Under the pieces are notes generated by a model. That model made no database searches and had not been told where the DNA came from. It was given only the letters and a program-made list of their open reading frames with translations. A stretch of DNA of 64,000 nt. Source: Methanobacteriota archaeon (GTDB lineage: Archaea; Thermoplasmatota; E2; DHVEG-1). The position numbers and the translations under genes were made by a program. The stretch lies in contig CAVYNH010000006.1 in NCBI GenBank assembly GCA_963769885.1, positions 32,001-96,000 of the forward strand. The letters run 5' to 3'. Every line of letters starts with the position of its first letter. Within the stretch, counting starts at the first letter, position 1. Shown in pieces: positions 11,630-32,750 of this stretch.

Positions 11630-12631
11630 GTGCCACCCACCGTGAACCGACGAACACAACTCTACGAATACGCCAAGCTCTCCAGCGCCCACTTCATCTT
11701 CCTCACCGCCATCATCCCCGTCACCGGCGCCATCGCCATGGGCAGCAAAAACCTCGTCTCCCTCACCTTCCTCTTCCTCATCGGCGTCTGCGCTCACACC
11801 GTCGGCTTCGCCTACAACCACTACCGCGACATCGACATAGATCGCCTCAGCACCGACATCGCCCAACGCCCCCTCCTCCAAGGCACCATCCCCAAACGCC
11901 ATGCCCAATTCTTTATCACCGCCGTCTTCCTCACCGGTTTCCTCCTCACCCTCATCGCCTTCGGGTGGCTCCTGGCTCTCATCTACCTCGCCGGCATCAG
12001 CCTCGCCGCCCTCTACGATCTCTACAGCAAACGCCTCCCCGGCATGGATCTCGTCCTTGCCGCCGCCGTCGCCACCGGCGTCGCCTTCGGTGCCGCCACC
12101 GTCTCCACACGCCTGCCGCCCAGCGTCCTCGTTTTCTGCGCCCTTGCGTTCCTCCAGACCCTGAACCTCAACCTCATCGCCGGCGGCCTCAAAGACGCTG
12201 ACCACGACCATCTCATCGGCTCCCGGCATCTCGCCCCCCTGCTCGGCGTCCGGGCCGACCGTGACGCCTTCCACATCCCAGGGTCCTTCAAGGCTCTCGC
12301 CTACCTCTGCGGAGGACTCTACACATTCATCGTCTTCGCCGCAGTCCTCACCGGCATCATCTCCTTGCCTCTCATCCTGCTGCCGGTCCTATTCGCCTTC
12401 ACCGTTGCGTTCTTCGTCATCACCTACAAAATGCTCAGCTTGCCTAGGTTCAATCGCCAAGAGGTCCGCAAGTACGTCGTCATCCAGTATATGGTGAACT
12501 GGCTGAACATCCCGGTGCTCCTTATGAGCGTCGCTCCCTTGGCTGTCCTAATGATCCTATATCCCATCGCCGGCTTGATCGTCTCGAATCTCATCCTTTA
12601 CCGAACCATCTTTCGGCCCCAGGTCCTGTAA
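11630..12631 (+). CDS. UbiA prenyltransferase family protein
   Basis: NHYRDIDID...RP and KDADHD aspartate-rich motifs; multiple TM helices. Confidence 0.88.
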   Translation: MPPTVNRRTQLYEYAKLSSAHFIFLTAIIPVTGAIAMGSKNLVSLTFLFLIGVCAHTVGFAYNHYRDIDIDRLSTDIAQRPLLQGTIPKRHAQFFITAVFLTGFLLTLIAFGWLLALIYLAGISLAALYDLYSKRLPGMDLVLAAAVATGVAFGAATVSTRLPPSVLVFCALAFLQTLNLNLIAGGLKDADHDHLIGSRHLAPLLGVRADRDAFHIPGSFKALAYLCGGLYTFIVFAAVLTGIISLPLILLPVLFAFTVAFFVITYKMLSLPRFNRQEVRKYVVIQYMVNWLNIPVLLMSVAPLAVLMILYPIAGLIVSNLILYRTIFRPQVL

Positions 12632-21093: not shown

Positions 21094-23103
21094 TTACCCG
21101 AAAATCAAGCGGAGGAGCGGGAACGCGTTCGGGAACCGCGCGAAGAGCCAGTCCAGGAACCGATGCGACGGCACAAACGGCATCTTCACCGTCGCCGGGT
21201 CAGACCAGTCGCTCTCCAAGTTGAACTTATCCTTCGCCTTCACCTTGATGAGGTAGGTCCCCCGCTTCGCCCAGGTGTGGTTCAGCGTCGCGTTCTGTCC
21301 GGACAGGTACGGACCAGTCCAGTTCGACATCGTTCCGTCACCCCAATCCCACATGAAGTACAACGTCTCGTTCTCATCGGGGTCCGTCGTGCTCGTCGTA
21401 TAGTTGTGGGGCACCTTCGGCTTCCCCTGTGCGGGGCCGACCGGTGTCCTTGGTTTATCAGGGGCGGTACCCGTGACCGTCACGTGGATGATCGGGCTGT
21501 ACCACCAGAGATGCCCATCGATGATCTCCCAGCCGTCCGTGCCATGCAGCTCCTCATGATAGGACGCGTTCGTCCGTTCACTCACCATCCGGAGGTACGG
21601 ATGGCTGCCATAGACCTCCGGGTGCAGGGGTGCGCCGTACCGCTGGTCCACCTGCGCTTTAATGACAAAATAGTAGTTCCCTGAGGTTGACGGCGTGATG
21701 GTCTCGCTGTAGATCGTCCCCGAGGTCTGACCGCTCTCCGCCCCCTCCCAGCCGGTGCCGCCGACCCACTGCCCGGCGTGCTCCGCATGATCTAGGGTTT
21801 CGAACTGAGGATGCGAAATCGGGTCAGGGTCCGTCCCCCACTGAATCGAAGTGTGATCGACAACCAGGCTGCCGTTCACCATCCACCGGAATGGGAGGAA
21901 GGTGCCGGGCATGACGACGCTGTTATCAGGGATGGTCCCGCTCTGGATCTGGACGTTGGGCTGCGCGAGGTCCGACTGATGCAGGATGATCCGGCGGACT
22001 TCCGCGCCGTACCGCGGCGTCGTGTCGTTGCCGAACGTGGACTCCGCCGGGTTCTTCGTCGTGGACATCTCCGGGGAGATCCACTCGACGCCCGCGCCGT
22101 AGTAGTTCCCAAACGTCTCATCATGGACGTAGGGGTCCTCCACCGGGTTCCGCTCGACGTTCCCGCCGTAGGCCCAGGGGGACATGCCGCCTTGGACGAC
22201 GTAGCCGACGGTGCCGGGGATGGTCCCGATGCTGTACATGTCGAAGTCGCCGCCGTAATCGCCGGTGTAAGCCCCGACTCGTTGGCTGGAGACCTCGTAG
22301 AAGTAGAAGTCTGGGGGCGCATAGTCGTTATCCCGGCCGGTGATCGGGCTGACGCCGTGGACCGAGGAGTGCGTGGAGCCCCAGGGATACAGGAGCTCTC
22401 GGGCCCCGCCGTGCCAGTCCAGCGCGATCCGAATCGTGTGGTTGTCAATGAAGCGGTATAAGGTCTTGCCCTGGACGCTCCCCCAGATGCCGCCGGTCGG
22501 CGACCCGGGTCCGTCCATGTCCGCCTCACGGTTCACGTCCCAGCCGTTCCCATCATAGCGCTGCACGTGGTCGTAGCCGTACGGGTTGTGCGAGACCTCA
22601 AGGTAGATCTCGCGGTTGTCGATGAGCCAGCGCAGCCAGGCCTTGTCATAGTCTGGGCACGGCTCGTCCGTGAACGCCATGCGCATCAGCCAGTCGGTGA
22701 ACCAGTAGTTCCCGATGGTGCCGACGGTTTCGTCCCCATGCGGGTTCCCCAGGAACAGGACCTCGGGCTTGTGCAGTCCGAGTGACTCGTTCGTGATCCG
22801 CACGTACCAGTCGTCGTAGCCGCCCGTGAGAGTCCCGGTGTTATATATGACGTTCATCTTGTACAGCTCAATGTAGTTCGGATACGTGCCGTTCAACAGT
22901 TGGTACCACGTAAGGAGCTGCGCGATGTTCGTCGGCTTGTGGTACCAGTCCGGCCCCAGCGGCAGCGTCTTCTCATCCAGGTCTGCCTGGGTGACGACCG
23001 TCCTTGGTTTCTGATGCTCAGAATACCCCGCCGCCGGCAGGGCATTCACCACCATTGTGAGGACAACAATGAGACTCACAATTCCAGTCAATTGCTTCTT
23101 CAT
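21094..23103 (-). CDS. Secreted M14 zinc carboxypeptidase with PKD domain and amphipathic tail
   Basis: HGDE (HxxE), NP.G, R, D.NR, DWH; PKD WDWGDG. Confidence 0.9.
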   Translation of the reverse strand: MKKQLTGIVSLIVVLTMVVNALPAAGYSEHQKPRTVVTQADLDEKTLPLGPDWYHKPTNIAQLLTWYQLLNGTYPNYIELYKMNVIYNTGTLTGGYDDWYVRITNESLGLHKPEVLFLGNPHGDETVGTIGNYWFTDWLMRMAFTDEPCPDYDKAWLRWLIDNREIYLEVSHNPYGYDHVQRYDGNGWDVNREADMDGPGSPTGGIWGSVQGKTLYRFIDNHTIRIALDWHGGARELLYPWGSTHSSVHGVSPITGRDNDYAPPDFYFYEVSSQRVGAYTGDYGGDFDMYSIGTIPGTVGYVVQGGMSPWAYGGNVERNPVEDPYVHDETFGNYYGAGVEWISPEMSTTKNPAESTFGNDTTPRYGAEVRRIILHQSDLAQPNVQIQSGTIPDNSVVMPGTFLPFRWMVNGSLVVDHTSIQWGTDPDPISHPQFETLDHAEHAGQWVGGTGWEGAESGQTSGTIYSETITPSTSGNYYFVIKAQVDQRYGAPLHPEVYGSHPYLRMVSERTNASYHEELHGTDGWEIIDGHLWWYSPIIHVTVTGTAPDKPRTPVGPAQGKPKVPHNYTTSTTDPDENETLYFMWDWGDGTMSNWTGPYLSGQNATLNHTWAKRGTYLIKVKAKDKFNLESDWSDPATVKMPFVPSHRFLDWLFARFPNAFPLLRLIFG

Positions 23104-23309
23104 AGATTTCAACTTCCCCGTTAAACTGTCTATATGGGGGATATTTTATAAAAAGCTTCGTAAGCACAAAACCACCCCACCACCCAAGAAAAATCAACTC
23201 TAAAGAAGATAAAACCCACTAAAAGACAGAATAAAACACAAAAAAAATCCATAAAAACAACGATACCGCCTCCTTCATCAACAGCCATGAGCAACCCGAC
23301 CACGAACCA

Positions 23310-24602
23310 TCAAATGACCAGGAACTGATTCTCCCGACTCCCATCCCACACCACATACGGCAACAGCACCGCCCGCTCCGCCTCAGACAACCCCCGGCGC
23401 TCCACCGGCGGCAGACGACCCGACGGTACCTTCCCCGCCCACGCCACAAACCGACGCACCATCCACCACGTCCCCGTCAGCCCCCTATTCACAAACACAT
23501 CCACCGCATCAACTCCCTCCCAGCGCCGGAACCCATCCCCAATACACGCAGACTCCTCCCCGGACTGCTCCACAATCCGACCCTGCGACCAACGCCCATA
23601 CTCAGGGTGCGCCGCACACAGCAAGATACGCCCCTTGTGTGCATTCGGACACACCTCCGCCGTCACCGCTGGCATCCCACCTTGATCCAACGTGATCACC
23701 GTCTCCGTCCGCTCCCAATCCCCTGCGAGATAGTACGTGTACAGAAAGACATCCCGCAGTCGCGCATGCTGCCGTTTGATCATCTGGAAAGCTGAAAAAA
23801 CAGCTTTGCCAACCCCCTTCAAGCCCCCGGTATACCGCCAGGCATAGATCCGCCGCCGCGGATCCTCTGAAAGATCCACAGTCGGATACCACGCCAAGAC
23901 CTGTACGTCACGATCCGGACGCTCTGGGACGACCAGCCCCGGGCCTCCCCACCAGCGGACCAACTCCGACTCAGACGCACCCGTAAACACAGGATGCTTG
24001 GTATCCAACTTGAACTCAAGCGGCGCCCCGCCCGTATGCACCCATGCCCCGTCTACGGTCTTGCCGGGTGCAAACGAGAAGACATACGCGGCCGCCCCAA
24101 CATCCTCCGGATGCCGCCTCTGGAACGGGTAAAGCAGAGGGAAGGCAAAGGACCGATAGAACGAGGAGACACAGGAGACACCCAGGTTACTATTATGGTA
24201 GCGTCGCTCTAAAAACGTGCGGGGCTTGCCCGCCCCAGTCTTCAAATCAGTCATGAGGGCCGCGCCACCGCAAATCCCGACATAACCTCCGCCCTTGCGA
24301 ACGAAGTCGGCGATATAGCGTTTCCATCTCCTCGTCCGTAGGGAGAGGGGGTCACCCTTGGTGATGGCATGGCCGTCCCCGACACCGCCGCCGGGGACTA
24401 CGAGCACATCAAAATTGGTCGTGGTGAGTCTTCCTTGCCGGATGTCTCTGTCGGTGAGGTATTCCACGGCAAATTTGTAGGATGAGTCGGGGGTCGTCCA
24501 GGCGTAGTTTTGGAGGAGGGCGAGGAAGAAATGTTTACCGGAGCCCCAGCCGAGAGGCTCATCGGCGAAGATGGCGACGCGGATCACCTTTTCCGCACTC
24601 AT
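23310..24602 (-). CDS. BPL_N-like class I glutamine amidotransferase/amidase domain protein
   Basis: VPGGG, GGGYVGICGGA nucleophile elbow, WGGP, HPE triad; TGATG overlap with the upstream gene. Confidence 0.8.
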   Translation of the reverse strand: MSAEKVIRVAIFADEPLGWGSGKHFFLALLQNYAWTTPDSSYKFAVEYLTDRDIRQGRLTTTNFDVLVVPGGGVGDGHAITKGDPLSLRTRRWKRYIADFVRKGGGYVGICGGAALMTDLKTGAGKPRTFLERRYHNSNLGVSCVSSFYRSFAFPLLYPFQRRHPEDVGAAAYVFSFAPGKTVDGAWVHTGGAPLEFKLDTKHPVFTGASESELVRWWGGPGLVVPERPDRDVQVLAWYPTVDLSEDPRRRIYAWRYTGGLKGVGKAVFSAFQMIKRQHARLRDVFLYTYYLAGDWERTETVITLDQGGMPAVTAEVCPNAHKGRILLCAAHPEYGRWSQGRIVEQSGEESACIGDGFRRWEGVDAVDVFVNRGLTGTWWMVRRFVAWAGKVPSGRLPPVERRGLSEAERAVLLPYVVWDGSRENQFLVI

Positions 24603-25720
24603 CAGGAACCTCGGCGGAGATAGTCCCAGTGATCGAGGGCGAAGCCCCAGCTCTGGTTCACCGTGTCGATGACCTGAGGGTCGATGGCGTAGACGTTGGT
24701 TTTGTACTTCGCCTGTCGTGCGAGGTACTGCTCGATGCCGGGGAGGGCTTGGTCGAGGCCGGGTAACGCAAGCTCCTCGTAGATTCGGCGGACTTGTCCG
24801 CGGGGGTCGGCGACGAGGTCCTCGTAGCGGAGTTCGACGAGGCTGTCTTTGGGGATCTGCGTCTTCTGCTTGTGGTAGTCATTGAAGAGTCGGACGTAGT
24901 TGTCGATGACCTGCTTGTCGAGGTCGGTCGTGGAGGCCGCTTGGAGGGCGAGGACGTCGAGGACGTTGCGGCGCATCTTGCGGGTGGAGAGGTACACGAG
25001 GTAGGGGTCGCGGTAGAGGTAGATGAACTTTGCCTCGGGGAACAGTTCCCGGAGGGTGGTGATGCGGGCGGTGTTGGGTGGGTTTTTGGAGAGGAGGCGG
25101 CGGCCGTGGTTGGCGTAGGTGATGGCTTTGATGAGGCTGAGGTAGGCGGTTTTCCAGTCGTCTTTTTCGGCTGTGGTGAGGCCGGTGAAGTGGATGGATT
25201 TTTGGTATTGTTGTTCAGCGTTCTTGGGGAAGTAGAGGCAGTGGAAGAAGGACCAGGGGCAGAGGACGGCGAGGGCGGCTTCGTCTTCGTAGGGGCCGTC
25301 CATGGCGACTTCGATGGCGTCCATGGGTCTGGTTTTGGGGAGGAACCGGGACAGGAAGTCTTTAATCGGCTCTAAGGTGAGGAAGCTGTCGGGGAGGAGC
25401 GTGTTCCAGAGGGAGACGTGGCAGAATTGGGGGTCTTGGCTGAGCAGCTCGTGGAGGTAGGTGGTGCCGCTGCGCCAGTGTCCGATGATGAAGACGGGGG
25501 GATGCTGGAGTGTTGTCGCTTCGATGCGGTGTTGGTAGCGGAGTCGGTAGAGGAATCGTACCGGTGCGGTCGCAATGGACATCACGGTGATGAAGGCGGC
25601 GCGGGGGTAGTAGCCGCGGTCGACGCCGCCGTTGGCGGCGAGGAGTCGGATCCATCGGCGGGTGGAGATTGCGAAGAGGGGGTGTTGGATGATGTTTTGT
25701 TTTTTTGTGGGCTCAGTCAT
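24602..25720 (-). CDS. PAPS-dependent sulfotransferase (Sulfotransfer_3, Stf3-like)
   Basis: PVFIIGHWRSGTTYLHELL, RPMD, P.EDE, KNP, FIYLYRDP...S, RYEDL. Confidence 0.92.
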   Translation of the reverse strand: MTEPTKKQNIIQHPLFAISTRRWIRLLAANGGVDRGYYPRAAFITVMSIATAPVRFLYRLRYQHRIEATTLQHPPVFIIGHWRSGTTYLHELLSQDPQFCHVSLWNTLLPDSFLTLEPIKDFLSRFLPKTRPMDAIEVAMDGPYEDEAALAVLCPWSFFHCLYFPKNAEQQYQKSIHFTGLTTAEKDDWKTAYLSLIKAITYANHGRRLLSKNPPNTARITTLRELFPEAKFIYLYRDPYLVYLSTRKMRRNVLDVLALQAASTTDLDKQVIDNYVRLFNDYHKQKTQIPKDSLVELRYEDLVADPRGQVRRIYEELALPGLDQALPGIEQYLARQAKYKTNVYAIDPQVIDTVNQSWGFALDHWDYLRRGS

Positions 25721-26879
25721 GGGTTGTCTCCGTGATGGGTGTTTCGTAGACGCGGTGGATCTTGGTGATTTTGGCGCCGGTGACGGCCATGGTGGAGCGG
25801 GCGGCGGTGTTGGTCTCGTCGATCCAGCCGATCTCGGCGGAGCGGTAGCCGCGTCGTCGCATCTCGGTAAAAGCGGCGTGGTTGAGGCAGGAGGCGATGT
25901 TGCGGTCGCGGTAGTCTTTGCGGATGCCGATGAGGTGGAGTTTGCCGGTGGTGATGGAGTGCTGGCGGTAGAGGAAGCTGAGGAGTTGGGGGGGGCCGAG
26001 GCGGCCGTGCATGCGGGCGAAGACTTGGTTGTAGTCCGGGGTGGCCCAGAGGTAGGCGATGGGGGTGTGGTTGATTTCGGCGATGAGGAAGAGGCGGGTG
26101 TCGACGAACCAGCGGAGTTGTTGGATGCCGAAGCGGGTGCGGACTTCTTCTCGGGATGCGGGGACGAATCCCCAGTGGTCCTGGAAGGTTTCGAGGAAGA
26201 GGTCGATCCACCAGTTGAGTTCTCTGCCGGTGTGGAGTCGGTTGAAGGGGCGGATGTGGATGCCGCTGTCGCGGCAGTGTTGGGCTTTTTCTTCGAGTCG
26301 GCGGGGGAAGGGTTTGGTGAGGTCGAAGGTGAAGGTGAGGAGGTCTTTGGTTTTGGTCATGCCGTAGCGTTCGGCGAAGGCGGCGTAGTATGGGGGGGTG
26401 TAGGTGGCAAGGAGGGTCTGGGGGGCGTCGTGGCCGGCGATGAGGAAGCCGCTGCCGATGTCGATGCGGCCGTCGATGGGGCCGCGCATGGTGGTCATGC
26501 CGTGGGTGGCGAGCCAGTGTTGCGCGGTGGCGAGGAGGGCGGTGGCGGTGTCGTAGTCGTTGATGGTTTCGAAGAAGCCGAAGAAGCCGACGTTGTCGTC
26601 GATGGTTTTGGTGTAGAGGTGGTCGATGATGGCAGCGATGCGGCCGACGGTTTTGCCGTTTTTTGTGGCGAGGAAGAGGCGGCGGTCGGCGTGGGTCCAG
26701 AACGGGTTTTTTGGGGAGAAGAATCTGTTGATCTCGGTGTAGAATGGGGGGATCCAGTGGGGGGTGTCGGCGTAGAGTGGGAAGGGGGCTTGATAGAATC
26801 GTCTGAGGTCCGTGGGGAGGTCCATCGGGATGATGTGTATTGGGTGATTTTTTTCCATGGCTTCGGGGCGGTTGCCCAT
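25713..26879 (-). CDS. YghO/bCerS-like tandem GNAT acyltransferase
   Basis: W.PP...NPF..H, VGRIAA, G.FGFFE, RGP, Y.PPYY, K.KDL, WGFVP, PDYNQ, GWIDE.N. Confidence 0.85.
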   Translation of the reverse strand: MGNRPEAMEKNHPIHIIPMDLPTDLRRFYQAPFPLYADTPHWIPPFYTEINRFFSPKNPFWTHADRRLFLATKNGKTVGRIAAIIDHLYTKTIDDNVGFFGFFETINDYDTATALLATAQHWLATHGMTTMRGPIDGRIDIGSGFLIAGHDAPQTLLATYTPPYYAAFAERYGMTKTKDLLTFTFDLTKPFPRRLEEKAQHCRDSGIHIRPFNRLHTGRELNWWIDLFLETFQDHWGFVPASREEVRTRFGIQQLRWFVDTRLFLIAEINHTPIAYLWATPDYNQVFARMHGRLGPPQLLSFLYRQHSITTGKLHLIGIRKDYRDRNIASCLNHAAFTEMRRRGYRSAEIGWIDETNTAARSTMAVTGAKITKIHRVYETPITETTHD

Positions 26880-27027: not shown

Positions 27028-28800
27028 TTATGTCTGCGTGAAGCGTGGGAATACAGAGGCTATGATATTCTGCTCGAATCGTGTCTCATGAAGGCGATGT
27101 GCGTGCCAAACGGCGGCGAGGAATCGAAGCAGCAGCTTCAGGGGGCTGGTCTGCCAGGCCTGCTCATGGGTGAGGGTCGGTGTTTTGAGCGTGACGGGGA
27201 TGAGTTCATAGTCGGATGCATTGTTCTGGTTCTCGACGCGGAGGTAGGTATCGAAGTGAGCGCGGCTTTGGTTCGGTGCGATGATCGATACCTGCACGGT
27301 GAGGTCTCCTGCTTCCGGGGTCAGCCCCATCCCTGATTCGGGGGTGAACGTCCATTCTCCCCACGTGAGCAGGGTGGTGTTCACGGTCCAGTTCAGCAGG
27401 GAGCCGGCGCGCCCGATGTTGCGGACGGTGAAGTTCCCGGTGACTGTTGCTTCGGGATGGACTCGGGACCAGTGCAGGCTGCCGGAGCAGTCCAGGTCAG
27501 GGGTCTCTGAGGGAGGCGGAGGCGTGAATGGAGGGATATAGTTGATCTTGTAGACGTCGTTGAGCCATGGGCTGGGATAGGTGTTGGTGTAGCTCCAGAC
27601 GATGTCGTTGTCTGGCGTCACCTCGAAGAAGACGCCGGTGATGCCGTTGCAGATTATGGTGTCACCGTCCAGGAGCCGTTCTGCCCCGGAGATGCGGGTG
27701 GCGTAGAAGCTCGTGGTCGGTGTCGCGGTGTAGCTCCAGTTCAGGCTGCTGGGGCCGTATCTGGAGCCGGGGGCCAAGAAGTACGAGCCGGTTTCGTTCA
27801 CAGGTGGGGCGAACTCGTCCACAGAGGAATATCCGCGGTTGAGGCCGTTGTTGAAGACGAGGATGTGGCCGGCGCCGGGGTACCCGGGGCGGATCCACGT
27901 GGCGTCGTGCTGGCTTGAGAAGATCATGTCGCTTGCCGTCCCGCGGCCGTACGCCAGGGGGTTGCCCCAGCGGTAGAGGATGTCGCCGCCGTGGCCGTAT
28001 CGGCCGCCGGTGTGGCCCGCGGCTTGCGCCGTCGTGGTGCTGTGGTCGATGACCCAGACTTCGTTGAAGTAGGGGCAGCTGATGAGTATCTGGTCGAACT
28101 GCTCATTGTAGTCGAGAGAGTTGCAGTGGAGCCAGTCTGTGTCCATACTTCCGTAGTTGATGTCGATGAGCTCGGGATGGTCGGAGATGGCCCCGTAATG
28201 CGGTAGTGAGGCGCTGTAATCTTGGATGAGGTGGTCCCAGACGTGCCACTGCCAGACGATGGTCCCGCTCATCGGGCCCGTTGGCTTGACCTCGATGATG
28301 TGCTCGGGGCAGACGCCGTTGGGGGGGACGTGTGCGGGGTTTCGTCCTGCCGCGATGGCCTCGGCCGGGGTTTTCTTTTCCCAGGCGAGGAGGAGGATGT
28401 CGCCATTCGGCAGCATGCGGACGTCATGGTGGGAGACATGGGTGCTGGAGCTGTAGGTGTAGTCCCAGACGACGGTCCCGTCCCAGAGGATTTTTTGGAC
28501 GCCGCCGCCGGTTCCGCCGAAGGTCCAAAGGTCGGTCTTGTAGGTACGCAGGATGGTGCCGTCGCCGAGCCAGCGGACGCCGGCCCCGGGCACGGCTGAG
28601 CTCGCCCAGGTGTGGTTCACTGCTCCGGAGCGGTCAATGAGGTACGTTATCGTCGAATCCATCGGGGCGAAGAGGATCTGTCCCTCAAGATCGAGGGATC
28701 GGCGAGGAGGGGCCATAGCGTCCGGTGTGGCGACTGCAGGCAGGCATACCGCGAGGACCAGAAACAGGCATCCTACCATGAGCGCCGCCGTAGCCTTCAT
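27028..28800 (-). CDS. Secreted arylsulfotransferase (ASST) with C-terminal Ig-like domain
   Basis: Signal peptide; HHD, DWLHCNSLDY, YRWGNP, QHDA, FNNG. Confidence 0.9.
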   Translation of the reverse strand: MKATAALMVGCLFLVLAVCLPAVATPDAMAPPRRSLDLEGQILFAPMDSTITYLIDRSGAVNHTWASSAVPGAGVRWLGDGTILRTYKTDLWTFGGTGGGVQKILWDGTVVWDYTYSSSTHVSHHDVRMLPNGDILLLAWEKKTPAEAIAAGRNPAHVPPNGVCPEHIIEVKPTGPMSGTIVWQWHVWDHLIQDYSASLPHYGAISDHPELIDINYGSMDTDWLHCNSLDYNEQFDQILISCPYFNEVWVIDHSTTTAQAAGHTGGRYGHGGDILYRWGNPLAYGRGTASDMIFSSQHDATWIRPGYPGAGHILVFNNGLNRGYSSVDEFAPPVNETGSYFLAPGSRYGPSSLNWSYTATPTTSFYATRISGAERLLDGDTIICNGITGVFFEVTPDNDIVWSYTNTYPSPWLNDVYKINYIPPFTPPPPSETPDLDCSGSLHWSRVHPEATVTGNFTVRNIGRAGSLLNWTVNTTLLTWGEWTFTPESGMGLTPEAGDLTVQVSIIAPNQSRAHFDTYLRVENQNNASDYELIPVTLKTPTLTHEQAWQTSPLKLLLRFLAAVWHAHRLHETRFEQNIIASVFPRFTQT

Positions 28801-28902: not shown

Positions 28903-30663
28903 TTACCTTAGGTCGAAAAGAGGGAAAAAGGAAGCCATGGCATTCTCCCGTAAGGTAGCGTGGTGTACGCCACGTGCTTCCCATAAAACGGCGAGGAACC
29001 GCAACAGCAATTTCAAGGGGCTGACCATGGGCGGGCCTTGGACGACGACCGTCGGCGTCTTGAGCGTCACTGGGATGAGTCCATAGTCAGAGGCATTATT
29101 CAGGTTCTCCACGCGGACGTAGCCTTCAAAGGCGGCGTTGCTTTGGTTCGGGGCCACGACCGAGACCTGCACGTCTATGCTCCCTGCTGCCGGCGTCAAC
29201 CCCATCCCAGACGAGGGCGTGATCGTCCACGTTCCCCACGTGAGCAGGGAGGTGTTCACGGACCAGTTCAGCAGCGAGCCTGCGCTGCCGGCGTTCCATA
29301 CACTGAAGCTGCCGGTGACGGTCGCGCCTGGATGCACGTCGGACCATGACAGGCTACCGGAGCACTTCAAGTCCGGGTAGACAACGGGAGGTGGTGTGGT
29401 CGCAGGAGGGACCCAGTCGATCTTGTAGATCTCGCCAGCATACGGGATGGTGTACGACCAGACTTGTGTCAAGCTCGGGGTGACTTCGATGACCTTTCTG
29501 GTTTCCCCATTGCAGATCATCGTGTCTCCATCCGGTAGGCGTTCAGCCCCAGAAATGTGGCTGGCGTAAAAGCTGGTTGACGGCGTCGCGGTATAGGTCC
29601 ACGTGAGGCTTGAAGGACCGTAGGCAGCGCCAGGGGCTAAGTAATAGAACCCGGTCGCGTTCACCGCGGGAGTGAACTCGTCGACGGAGGAATAGTGCCG
29701 TGACACGCCGTTGTTGAAGACGAGGATATCGCCTGCGCCCGGACACCCGGAATCAATCCATGTGGCATCATGCTGGCTATTGAACACCGTGGTGCCTGAG
29801 CGGCTGTAGGCCGCTGGGTTCCCCCAGCGGTAGAGCAGGTCGCCGCCGTGGCCGTAGTGGCCGCCGGTGTGGCCCGCCGCCTGCGCGGTGGTGGTGCTGT
29901 GGTCGATGACCCAGACTTCGCCGAAGTTATGGCAGCTGATGAGGATCTGGTCGAACTGTTCGTTGTAGTCGATGGAGTTGCAGTGGAGCCAATCCTGTCC
30001 GGCCGACGTTGCGTAGTTGATGTTGATGAGCTCCGGGTGATCGCTGATTACACCGTAGTTTGGTTTCGACGAGCTTTGGTCTTGGATGAGGTGGTCCCAG
30101 ACGTGCCATTGCCACACGATCGTCCCGCTCGTCGGACCCGTGGGCTGTATCTCAACGAGGTGCTCTGGGCAGAGGCCTTGGGACGGCGCTGATGTCCGTC
30201 CCATCGCGATGGCTTCCGACTGGGTCTTTTTCTCCCAAGCTTCCAGCAGGATGTTGCCGTTGGGTAGCATGCGGACGTCATGATGGGAACAGTATGTGGT
30301 CGTGCTATATTCGTAACTCCAGGTGACGGTTCCGTTCCAGAGGATGATCTGGACGCCGCCGCCTGCTCCTCCAAAGCCCCAGTTGAGGTTCGTCTTGTAG
30401 GTCCGTAAAATGGTGCCGTCGCCAATCCAGCGGACGCCTGCTCCGGGGATGGCAGCACTCGTCCACGTGTGGTTCACGGTGCCGTCACGATCGACGAGGT
30501 AGGTCTTCGTCGAGGCCATGGATGAATACAGAATTTGGCCATCGAGGTCGGGCAGTGGTTGTTGGCCGCGTGAATTGTCTGTCTGGGTCGTGAACAGCCC
30601 AGGGATAGTCGGCGTCAAAAAAAGGAGGGTGCAGCTTACTGCGAGAATAATCGCGGCCTTCAT
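28903..30663 (-). CDS. Secreted arylsulfotransferase (ASST), tandem paralog
   Basis: Same motifs as, and colinear with, 27028-28800. Confidence 0.9.
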   Translation of the reverse strand: MKAAIILAVSCTLLFLTPTIPGLFTTQTDNSRGQQPLPDLDGQILYSSMASTKTYLVDRDGTVNHTWTSAAIPGAGVRWIGDGTILRTYKTNLNWGFGGAGGGVQIILWNGTVTWSYEYSTTTYCSHHDVRMLPNGNILLEAWEKKTQSEAIAMGRTSAPSQGLCPEHLVEIQPTGPTSGTIVWQWHVWDHLIQDQSSSKPNYGVISDHPELININYATSAGQDWLHCNSIDYNEQFDQILISCHNFGEVWVIDHSTTTAQAAGHTGGHYGHGGDLLYRWGNPAAYSRSGTTVFNSQHDATWIDSGCPGAGDILVFNNGVSRHYSSVDEFTPAVNATGFYYLAPGAAYGPSSLTWTYTATPSTSFYASHISGAERLPDGDTMICNGETRKVIEVTPSLTQVWSYTIPYAGEIYKIDWVPPATTPPPVVYPDLKCSGSLSWSDVHPGATVTGSFSVWNAGSAGSLLNWSVNTSLLTWGTWTITPSSGMGLTPAAGSIDVQVSVVAPNQSNAAFEGYVRVENLNNASDYGLIPVTLKTPTVVVQGPPMVSPLKLLLRFLAVLWEARGVHHATLRENAMASFFPLFDLR

Positions 30664-30740: not shown

Positions 30741-31034
30741 TTATCCCTCCGAAAAGAAGGGGGTCTGTACTTGGCCGAGCCATTGGTGGGACAGGAGACG
30801 GGCAATGAAGGGCAGGAGAAAATCGTGGATCCAGGCTCGCGGTTGAACTGGAGCGTAGACGCCTCTCACCTCACCTGGGGCGCATGGACGTTCACCCCCA
30901 CCTCCGGGCAGAATCTGACCCTCGATACTTCCACTGACATTGTAAGAACCAGAACTCGGCGTCAAGCCCGCCATCACACACGGTACGACAAGAAGTACAG
31001 CGCATGCTACTGGCAGAAGCGTTATCGTCTTCAT
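30741..31034 (-). pseudogene. Collapsed third ASST paralog: signal peptide, inverted fragment and C-terminal tail
   Basis: N-terminus ends IEGQIL as in the paralogs; + strand 30828-30920 encodes GSRLNWSVDASHLTWGAWTFTPTSG, the paralog C-domain in reverse orientation. Confidence 0.8.
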
Positions 31035-31331
31035 TATATACTTTCCCCATTTTTTAAAATATAATTCTAATATAAATTATTTTCCCCAATATACTGCCAA
31101 CTCCCCCAGCATCTAGACCCCCATTCGAAAAAAAATTTCACATTAATCCGGCTATATCCCAGGCTCCAGAGGAGACCATTTGACAACTTCACCAAAAACA
31201 ATACCCATACAAGGAGAAAACAGGCCGATACACAGCGTCCTTACCCACGTCGCCCCGGCATCCGTAAAGCCAGGGAAACCATTAAGAAAAACCATGTCTT
31301 CCCCCATATGCGGGAAGGAGAGACCCCACAC

Positions 31332-32750
31332 ATGGCGCTAAAACGGACCCTCACCTACTTCGACATGGTCGCCATCGTCGTCGGCTCCATCGTCGGCGCC
31401 GACATCTACGTCGCCTCCTCTCTCACCGCAAACCTGCTCGGCCCCGCTGCCCTCCTCGTCTGGATCGCCGCCGGCCTCGCCGCCACCGTCATCGCCCTCG
31501 TCTTCGCCTACTGCGCCTACTACGTCCCACGGGTCGGCGGCCCCTTCGCCTTCGTCTCCGCCGCCTTCGACGACTTCTTCGGCTTCCTCACCGGCTGGAG
31601 CATCTGGATCGCCGAAGTCATCTCGCTCCCCGTCTTCGCCATCGCCTTCGTCCAATACCTCCAATACTTCACCGGCGCCCTCACCACCCCAGCACAGATC
31701 CTCATCAAAGCCGCCTTCATCATCGCCCTGACCACCATCAACATCTTCGGGGTCAAAGCCGCCGGACGCGTTAACGACATCCTCACCATCCTCAAACTCC
31801 TCCCCCTCATCCTCCTCATCATCGCCGGCATCGCCTTCATCGCCATGAACCCCTCCACATTCATCGCACACTACATCCCCTTCGCCCCCCTCGGCTTCAG
31901 CCAATTCGGCACCGCCCTCGTCCTCATCTTCTGGGCCTACGTCGGCTTCGAAATGGGCACCTTCCCCTCCACCGAAGTCATCAACCCCCGCAAGACCGTC
32001 CCCCGCGCCATCATCACCGGCATGATGATCGTCATGGTCTTCTACCTCGCCACCAACTTCATCGTCTACAGCATCCTCCCCTGGCAGCAACTCGGCCACT
32101 CCTCCACCCCGCTGATCACCGCCATCAGCATGACCATCATCGGAGGCGCCGGCGTGATCATCATGGGCATCGGCGCCCTCCTCTCCGTCTCCGGCTCTAA
32201 CGAATCCGGCACCCTCGGCACCGCCCGCCTCAGCTACGCTATGGCCATCGACGGCCTCTTCCCCAAAATCTTCGCTAAAACCCACAAAAGATACAAGACG
32301 CCGGTCGGCGCCCTTGTCATCCAAGCCATCCTCGCCTTCGCCCTCGCCACCCTCTCCACCCTCCCCAACCTGATTAGCTTCGCCGTCTTCAACCTCGCCG
32401 TCGCCTTCCTCCTCACCTGCCTCGCCCTCATCGCCCTCCGCAAAACCACAACCCACCACCTCCGCGGCCAACACATCCTCCCCTACCTCGGTATCGCCAT
32501 CTGCCTCTACCTCTTCTACAACACCACTCCCACCAACATCCTCATCGGCCTCGCCATCATCCTCGCCGGCATCCCCATCTACGCCTACTTCTCCCCCAAA
32601 ACCGACATCCACCACCTCAAAGACCTCTTCGTCTCCGAAGAAGCCGTCTTCACCCGCAACCTCAGCCGCAAAGAACGCTTCCTCGCCAACTTCATCGACC
32701 TCCTCCACCGCGCCTACCACAAACTCCACAAGACCAAAAAACCAGACTAA
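31332..32750 (+). CDS. APC-family amino acid permease
   Basis: GS.VGA.I, P.VGG, WAYVGFE, NP.KT.PRA, AR..YAMA.DG.FP. Confidence 0.92.
   Translation: MALKRTLTYFDMVAIVVGSIVGADIYVASSLTANLLGPAALLVWIAAGLAATVIALVFAYCAYYVPRVGGPFAFVSAAFDDFFGFLTGWSIWIAEVISLPVFAIAFVQYLQYFTGALTTPAQILIKAAFIIALTTINIFGVKAAGRVNDILTILKLLPLILLIIAGIAFIAMNPSTFIAHYIPFAPLGFSQFGTALVLIFWAYVGFEMGTFPSTEVINPRKTVPRAIITGMMIVMVFYLATNFIVYSILPWQQLGHSSTPLITAISMTIIGGAGVIIMGIGALLSVSGSNESGTLGTARLSYAMAIDGLFPKIFAKTHKRYKTPVGALVIQAILAFALATLSTLPNLISFAVFNLAVAFLLTCLALIALRKTTTHHLRGQHILPYLGIAICLYLFYNTTPTNILIGLAIILAGIPIYAYFSPKTDIHHLKDLFVSEEAVFTRNLSRKERFLANFIDLLHRAYHKLHKTKKPD

Follow-up and report, generated by a model that had tools for sequence, protein, structure and literature searches.

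A conserved gene neighbourhood in sediment Thermoplasmatota combines a YghO-like tandem GNAT, a PAPS-dependent sulfotransferase and an amidotransferase-fold enzyme with secreted arylsulfate sulfotransferases

The window analysed here is a stretch of 64,000 nucleotides (contig CAVYNH010000006.1, positions 32,001 to 96,000) from the genome of a Thermoplasmatota archaeon (2.1 Mb, 92% complete; G000, hereafter the host genome). It carries, on its minus strand, three consecutive genes encoding a YghO-like tandem GNAT N-acyltransferase (gene 1, P0001), a sulfotransferase dependent on 3'-phosphoadenosine 5'-phosphosulfate (PAPS; gene 2, P0002) and a protein with the class I glutamine amidotransferase fold (gene 3, P0003). 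The trio constitutes the cytoplasmic half of a module conserved in one family of sedimentary Thermoplasmatota, which in its fuller form comprises one or more secreted arylsulfate sulfotransferases (ASSTs), the tandem GNAT, the PAPS sulfotransferase, the amidotransferase-fold enzyme with its Cys-His-Glu triad, and a dedicated UbiA prenyltransferase. These are known kinds of enzymes in a previously undescribed combination. We favour, tentatively and at somewhat less than an even chance, the view that the module builds a prenyl-anchored, N-acylated and PAPS-sulfated compound linked to the surface ASSTs. Gene structure, folds, catalytic motifs, conserved neighbourhoods and the supply of PAPS are observed directly and provide the ground for this proposal.

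The module is narrowly distributed. When 200 genomes were drawn evenly from across the phylum, the GNAT was detected (E ≤ 1e-20) in 11 of 15 genomes of the window's family and in none of the 185 genomes elsewhere. This family is probably Thermoprofundales, also called MBG-D (for Marine Benthic Group D): homologues of the GNAT form more than 1400 clusters, almost all of them metagenomic, and the named ones are Thermoplasmatota, including the metagenome-assembled genomes (MAGs) SG8-52-3 and M9B2D, which are listed as Thermoprofundales/MBG-D (PMC6461988). Among 61 family genomes, the GNAT is present in 31, an orthologue of gene 3 in about 30 and both in 26, and in about 21 of these 26 the two genes lie no more than about 4.5 kb apart; orthologues of the sulfotransferase (at least 48% identity) occur in about 22 of the 61. 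Given that the family genomes are related and often fragmented, these counts describe the association rather than test it. The co-directional trio was found in at least six sampled genomes of about five genera and in three metagenomic contigs, and its gene order has been kept to an extent far above what chance would produce. Conservation of the order across Thermoplasmatota, which an initial annotation of the window had raised as a question, is thus real but limited in reach, as the trio is confined to a single family of the phylum.

Two layouts of the module recur. In the first, ASST, GNAT, sulfotransferase and gene 3 are co-directional (the window, G167, G120, G237, G222, G078 and the three metagenomic contigs); in the second, the GNAT gene is divergent from gene 3 and the sulfotransferase is missing (G095, G233, G243 and others). 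ASST genes neighbour the GNAT or the whole trio in 13 of the 18 contexts that we looked at, and the order ASST, GNAT, sulfotransferase is found across genera as well as in a sister clade. A PAPS sulfotransferase, an ASST and possible carrier-building enzymes are hence encoded together. The ASST pair upstream of the trio, which the initial annotation had left out, represents the most consistent partner of the GNAT.

A UbiA prenyltransferase is located within the module in 8 of the 18 contexts, and it may follow directly 3' of gene 3, with gaps of 7, 14, 16, 20 and 143 nt. Six module UbiAs that we compared, five of them encoded immediately after gene 3, share 42-70% mutual identity and therefore belong to one subfamily; the module UbiA of locus L010 is another paralogue. 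Against NCBIfam, these proteins reach about 100 bits where cut-offs are near 270, and no named equivalog was matched. The host genome keeps an orthologue of the module-type UbiA at an unlinked position (G000:C6:523636-524658). Genes of the geranylgeranyl reductase family are present in two contexts. In three contexts, which lack gene 3 or have it at another position, a protein of about 1090 amino acids (L010:8213-11500, L030:9382-12666 and L031:8184-11462; 43-45% identical) is encoded between the GNAT and the sulfotransferase; Pfam gave only sub-threshold, prealbumin-like matches for it. The L010 protein (about 1095 amino acids) was considered as a relative of gene 3 and rejected, as no relationship was found. 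The UbiA family is strongly expanded, with 17 matches in the host genome, up to 19 in its relatives and one copy in the window at 11630-12631 (plus strand). Lipid, quinone and haem synthesis would lead one to expect only few UbiA copies.

Within the window, the GNAT (388 amino acids, 25713-26879), the sulfotransferase (372 amino acids, 24602-25720) and gene 3 (430 amino acids, 23310-24602) are all encoded on the minus strand, and both the three reading frames and their junctions lie precisely where the initial annotation had placed them. At the first junction, ATGACTGA, the start of the sulfotransferase overlaps the stop of the GNAT by 8 nt (25713-25720), and at the second, TGATG, sulfotransferase and gene 3 overlap by 1 nt at 24602. 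The TATA box proposed ahead of the trio corresponds to a TATA-like element, TTTAAATA, at 26903-26896 (minus strand), which precedes the ATG of the GNAT by 17-24 nt and is a candidate promoter on inspection of the sequence; a GGAGG sits between it and the start codon. Oligo-T tracts resembling a terminator are found 3' of the gene 3 stop (about 23215-23265, minus strand). The next gene (21094-23112, minus strand), whose product is a secreted M14 carboxypeptidase containing PKD domains, is preceded by a separate TATA-like element, TTTATAAAA. Together, the overlaps, the TATA-like box, the oligo-T tracts and the separate downstream element make a single three-gene transcription unit from 26879 to 23310 plausible. 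No clear oligo-T terminator was seen between the nearer ASST gene and the GNAT gene on inspection, so that read-through from upstream may also occur. A scan of the locus for sigma-70 promoters and terminators was uninformative, the host being an archaeon.

Gene 1 had been described as a YghO-like double GNAT, and rightly so. The protein aligns end to end with YghO of Escherichia coli (33% identity over 369 residues, E = 7e-61), and its AlphaFold model (64 sequences, pLDDT 94) finds tandem GNATs as best Foldseek matches (7q3a, 2wpw, 5kf1 and 1ozp, E of about 1e-12 to 1e-15), the structures matched being MAB_4324, a clavulanate tandem GNAT, a glucosamine N-acetyltransferase and mycothiol synthase. 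The Pfam match, Acetyltransf_1, covers the C-terminal half only, and NCBIfam yielded no model match for either the GNAT or gene 3. Since neither the GNAT nor the sulfotransferase nor gene 3 contains a hydrophobic segment, all three proteins should be cytoplasmic. A complex prediction for the GNAT with gene 3, run without controls, scored 0.00, which counts neither for nor against binding. Searched exhaustively, the library contains 5926 GNAT relatives, with 805 representatives at E ≤ 1e-30; those of the best 150 that are full-length and non-archaeal show 28-37% identity. The family shows some architectural variety: a PilZ domain stands at the N terminus of two relatives (P0252 and P0266), pointing to control by c-di-GMP, and a third (P0246, 784 amino acids) consists of the whole tandem GNAT duplicated in tandem.

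The assignment of gene 2 to Sulfotransfer_3 was also confirmed, by Pfam (E = 9e-37, 127.9 bits against a gathering score of 27) and by intact PAPS-binding motifs. The nearest solved chains, 2zq5 and 2z6v, are weak matches (E = 4e-9) and represent mycobacterial Stf1 and Stf9. The 5'-phosphosulfate loop GHWRSGTT (G-x-x-R-S-G-T-T) aligns to GLVRTGTT of 2zq5, and the Arg/Ser motif for the 3'-phosphate, YRDP...S, aligns to HRPV...S. Weak similarity to protein-tyrosine (tyrosylprotein) sulfotransferases was found as well. The archaeal enzyme thus shares with the mycobacterial Stf proteins the Sulfotransfer_3 family, the PAPS motifs and, through neighbouring UbiA genes, an isoprenoid link; mycobacterial Stf3 makes sulfomenaquinone. 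It differs from them in that the similarity is weak and no Cyp128-type hydroxylase accompanies it.

The host genome holds three sulfotransferase paralogues. In related genomes, at least 13 carry a member of a paralogous clade (33-39% identical to P0002) next to a gene for UbiA; these paralogues, of 373-374 amino acids, come from many genera (L019, L020, L022, L023 and at least nine further genomes). Two of the adjoining UbiAs were scanned and measure about 280 amino acids, and the one run against NCBIfam resembles digeranylgeranylglyceryl phosphate (DGGGP) synthase. In L021 (G215:C90:1-6719), the genes run in the order UbiA, a 284-codon reading frame, sulfotransferase paralogue, ATP sulfurylase, DHH phosphoesterase and, at the contig end, adenosine 5'-phosphosulfate (APS) kinase; the phosphoesterase is possibly a 3'-phosphoadenosine 5'-phosphate (pAp) phosphatase. 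The UbiA-adjacent paralogues and this gene row tie the sulfotransferase family to PAPS supply and prenyl chemistry. In some genomes, sulfotransferase paralogues adjoin ASST genes, and in the host genome the sulfotransferase and ASST paralogues adjoin neither each other nor UbiA. In L019, the UbiA/sulfotransferase pair is flanked by genes for a LuxE-type acyl-protein synthetase and a MacB/FtsX permease.

PAPS synthesis, which the initial annotation had asked of the genome, is encoded by a cysD-cysN-cysC operon (G000:C4:190778-193491). Neither an ATP-sulfurylase-type enzyme nor a sulfite reductase nor a second strong match to PAPS_reduct was found in the 92% complete host genome. The organism can therefore make PAPS and seems unable to reduce it, and PAPS appears to be made for sulfation only. 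The same pattern was reported for Thermoprofundales, where the authors read it as sulfur assimilation (PMC6461988). Given the three sulfotransferase paralogues in the genome, it is simpler to assume that PAPS serves as a sulfuryl donor. A strong match to APS kinase is present in about 54 of the 61 family genomes (in 58 of them if E ≤ 0.001 is accepted), and this gene, being nearly universal in the family, does not discriminate.

Gene 3 had been called an intact class I amidase. The triad and the class I amidotransferase fold are both there; the fold would suit an amidase, a glutaminase or an acyl-enzyme transferase alike. Only BPL_N passes in Pfam (30.7 bits against a cut-off of 24.2), the protein atlas clusters matched are likewise BPL_N only, and a sequence search of the PDB gave nothing useful. 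Across 24 homologues with 51-75% identity, Cys111 (in GICGG), His332 and Glu334 (both in HPE) never vary. In the predicted structure (pLDDT 89, pTM 0.91), which adopts the class I amidotransferase (GATase1) fold, strand 106-110 leads into helix 111-116 with the cysteine at the elbow, and HPE comes directly behind strand 325-329. VIA gave Z scores of 18.0 to 2abw, 16.2 to 3d54 and 15.4 to 4gud, that is, 18 for Pdx2 glutaminase, 16 for PurQ and a ThuA-like protein, and 14-15 for HisH, the gamma-glutamyl peptidase GGP1 and the acyltransferase MetA; Foldseek returned the same families with probability 1.00. Gene 3 hence shares with class I glutamine amidotransferases and their relatives (Pdx2, PurQ, HisH, GatD, GGP1, MetA; Z 14-18) the fold, the Cys at the nucleophile elbow and the His-x-Glu after the last core strand. 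In contrast to these enzymes, its core is interrupted by an insertion of about 180-200 residues, and no synthase partner that would use ammonia is recognisable in the module, where its constant partners are the GNAT and UbiA. A second gene-3-like clade with open frames of about 540 amino acids (32-39% identity) exists in relatives (for example, G167:C35:13633-14784, and several in G243), and no member of it was found in the host genome.

Both ASST genes lie directly upstream of the trio on the minus strand (paralogue 1, 586 amino acids, 28903-30663; paralogue 2, 590 amino acids, 27028-28800, next to the GNAT gene) and encode proteins that are 68% identical to each other. They match Pfam Arylsulfotrans with 78.9 and 58.3 bits, respectively (cut-off 24.2). 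Each begins with a signal-like hydrophobic segment (residues 3-21 in paralogue 1, where it is the only one, and 6-24 in paralogue 2), which may serve as signal or anchor, and continues with a beta-propeller, a Pro-rich linker and a C-terminal Ig-like domain of a type common to many surface proteins in these genomes. We aligned the archaeal ASSTs to AssT of E. coli CFT073, with residue roles (His252, His356, Asn358, Arg374, Thr501 and His436) taken from PMC13426309. The two have in common the ASST propeller, the extracytoplasmic location and His252, His356 and Asn358. A Q-H motif, in 'SQHDATW' of the archaeal proteins, aligns one column off Q-H436 and may be its counterpart. The archaeal ASSTs differ from AssT in having the Ig-like domain at the C terminus and no N-terminal beta-sandwich, in not keeping Arg374 and Thr501, and in that the archaeon has no DsbL/DsbI partners. 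There are four full copies in the host genome and about 13 in a congener, mostly scattered. Beyond the ASST array lies an amino-acid permease gene (31308-32750), and between it and paralogue 1 there is a short reading frame (30741-31034), opposite to which the other strand holds a piece resembling the ASST Ig-like domain.

How these enzymes might act together can be sketched as follows. At the membrane, a UbiA-type enzyme would prenylate a small head group, on which the amidotransferase-fold enzyme would install or unmask an amine. The GNAT would N-acylate this amine with acyl-CoA as donor, and the sulfotransferase would O-sulfate the product using PAPS from CysDNC. The resulting sulfated amphiphile would come to stand at the outer face and be used there by the anchored ASST propellers, most likely as a sulfuryl donor for extracellular acceptors, where PAPS is unavailable. 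All substrates, the order of the steps and the relay to the ASSTs are drawn from gene neighbourhoods. A bolder version, which we regard as improbable though worth bearing in mind, is that a prenyl-anchored aryl or alkyl sulfate, formed with PAPS at the cytoplasmic side of the membrane, acts as a lipid-linked sulfuryl carrier that is flipped outward, so that the ASSTs can sulfate surface or environmental acceptors. Since there is no PAPS outside the cell, a lipid-linked relay of this kind would make good that lack; it would also explain why PAPS synthesis is kept without sulfate reduction, and would be the sulfate counterpart of the polyprenyl-phosphate sugar carriers.

The closest known arrangement is the two-step sulfation in caprazamycin biosynthesis, of which the proposed relay would be a lipid-linked form. 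There, according to PMC4257720, which cites Tang et al. (2013), the PAPS-dependent Cpz8 places sulfate on a carrier, and this carrier serves the ASST Cpz4 as donor. The caprazamycin genes (Cpz8, the type III polyketide synthase Cpz6, and Cpz4) resemble the archaeal module in bringing together a PAPS sulfotransferase, an ASST-family enzyme and possible carrier-building enzymes. In contrast to that system, the archaeal module contains no type III polyketide synthase, its place being taken by the tandem GNAT, the amidotransferase-fold enzyme and UbiA; the archaeal ASSTs are secreted, anchored and present in several copies, with transfer by them so far a prediction; and the module belongs to the core genome rather than to an antibiotic cluster.

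Several points weigh against the prenyl-anchored sulfated compound that we favour. The functional assignments derive from genomic context, and substrates, products and activities are predictions. The genomes compared are related and therefore non-independent samples, and many are fragmented. Divergent clusters of GNAT, gene 3 and UbiA exist without a sulfotransferase, which suggests that sulfation may be an optional decoration and not the point of the pathway. In the window and its two closest relatives (L002 and L024), no UbiA is adjacent and an M14 peptidase gene occupies that place, and the module has no conserved gene for an exporter or flippase. In the ASSTs, the one-column shift of the Q-H pair adds to the replacement of Arg374 by Pro or His in some copies (Arg in others) and of Thr501 by Ile or Leu. 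Finally, the expansion and scatter of the ASST genes would also fit the scavenging of environmental sulfate esters.

The initial annotation had compared the GNAT with a bacterial ceramide synthase (bCerS) and proposed a pathway making an N-acylated, sulfated lipid or amphiphile. Read as a ceramide-like route, in which a bCerS-like GNAT would use a fatty acyl donor to N-acylate a long-chain amine before sulfation yields a sphingolipid-like sulfolipid, this is the least probable of the explanations considered here. That the YghO-like family has members of the ceramide-synthase type is supported by a natural fusion protein, P0276 (L011:1024-3357, 777 amino acids), in which an alpha-oxoamine synthase is joined to a YghO-like GNAT; the synthase half has serine palmitoyltransferase (Spt) as best NCBIfam match (539 bits, below the cut-off of 640). 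As a Rosetta-stone protein, the fusion connects the two steps of the ceramide pathway of bacteria; its contig is too short to show CerR. Caulobacter bCerS is presumably filed in the same family (InterPro 'BcerS-like'). The mycobacterial Stf-type proteins, which are the solved sulfotransferases nearest to gene 2, and the presence of PAPS synthesis genes would also suit such a route. However, in a FastTree phylogeny of 153 rows, in which P0276 stood in for characterised bCerS, the archaeal GNATs form one clade (support 95), with P0276 and E. coli YghO elsewhere. The nearest neighbour of this clade, P0250, lies in a UbiA/ASST/sulfotransferase context of its own, and the nearest non-module relatives (P0249 and P0263) show no sulfation genes in their contexts. 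Moreover, neither an Spt-type enzyme nor an acyl carrier protein (ACP) was found in the 92% complete host genome. Its single alpha-oxoamine synthase, on another contig than the trio, is of the BioF/Kbl type (505 bits to TIGR01825) and scores 369, 282 and 239 bits against Spt models with cut-offs of 640, 500 and 670. A survey of the Black Sea likewise reported no archaeal MAG with Spt-like genes (PMC11334938). Because E. coli also has YghO, membership of the family alone does not imply ceramide synthesis. With a separate archaeal clade, no Spt and no ACP, a sphingolipid or ceramide-like product is unlikely, and the analogy to ceramide synthase is not supported. The GNAT shares with the YghO/bCerS family the full-length similarity, the tandem fold and relatives such as the Spt-like fusion, while its partners are ASST, sulfotransferase, amidotransferase-fold protein and UbiA rather than Spt and CerR. 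The wider idea of a lipid or amphiphile fares better: the lipid genes of the module are isoprenoid, and such a substrate is supported by the UbiA and geranylgeranyl-reductase-like genes in relatives.

Three further explanations share parts of this evidence. Two-step sulfation could run on a soluble carrier, the GNAT and gene 3 making an N-acyl phenolic compound with no lipid anchor (for example, N-acyl tyrosine or tyramine) that would be sulfated by the sulfotransferase, exported and then used as donor by the ASSTs. The co-encoded PAPS sulfotransferase and ASST, as in caprazamycin, would be accounted for, as would the weak similarity to protein-tyrosine sulfotransferases, the missing UbiA neighbour in the window, L002 and L024, and the permease gene beside the ASST array. 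We nevertheless consider a soluble carrier unlikely: the permease was not seen in other contexts, UbiA is part of 8 of the 18 contexts, mostly as one subfamily placed right after gene 3, and sulfotransferase paralogues are paired with UbiA, too. Less likely still is that the cytoplasmic enzymes acylate and sulfate a surface-bound peptide, protein or glycan precursor, with the ASSTs remodelling surface sulfation. Weak matches of gene 2 to tyrosylprotein sulfotransferases, the acceptance of tyrosine peptides by ASSTs (PMC13426309) and the Ig-like domain that the ASSTs share with many surface proteins point in this direction, but no precursor peptide, glycosyltransferase or oligosaccharyltransferase gene is conserved in the module, and wherever there is context, it links the tandem GNATs of this kind to amines that are small molecules or lipids.

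It is also conceivable that these genes do not all serve one pathway. An unsulfated, prenylated metabolite would then be made by the GNAT together with gene 3 and UbiA, and sulfotransferase and ASSTs would be nearby for other reasons; the ASSTs, for example, might remove or transfer sulfate groups of organic matter in the sediment. Among the alternatives to a prenyl-anchored sulfated compound we give this one the most weight, although we doubt it. It is favoured by the divergent clusters that lack the sulfotransferase and by the mostly scattered ASST paralogues (four here, about 13 in the congener), whereas the translational coupling of all three genes in the window, the recurrence of the ASST-GNAT-sulfotransferase order across genera and in the sister clade, and the sulfotransferase paralogues beside ASST genes in some genomes speak for a functional connection.

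Thermoprofundales (MBG-D) are among the most widespread archaea of sediments and are still uncultured. We found no mention of the module in their genome papers, where the word "sulfotransferase" does not occur. The module described here offers a second use for PAPS in these organisms, namely sulfation, and joins an intracellular PAPS enzyme to extracellular, PAPS-independent enzymes, accompanied in relatives by a dedicated prenyltransferase. For most ASSTs, the physiological donor is still unknown (PMC13426309); if the product of the module is a sulfuryl carrier, it would provide such a donor. A sulfated isoprenoid amphiphile, if this is what the module makes, would represent a new class of archaeal lipids and a possible biomarker. 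In either case, should the proposal prove true, the YghO-like GNAT family would gain a second functional context besides ceramide synthesis.

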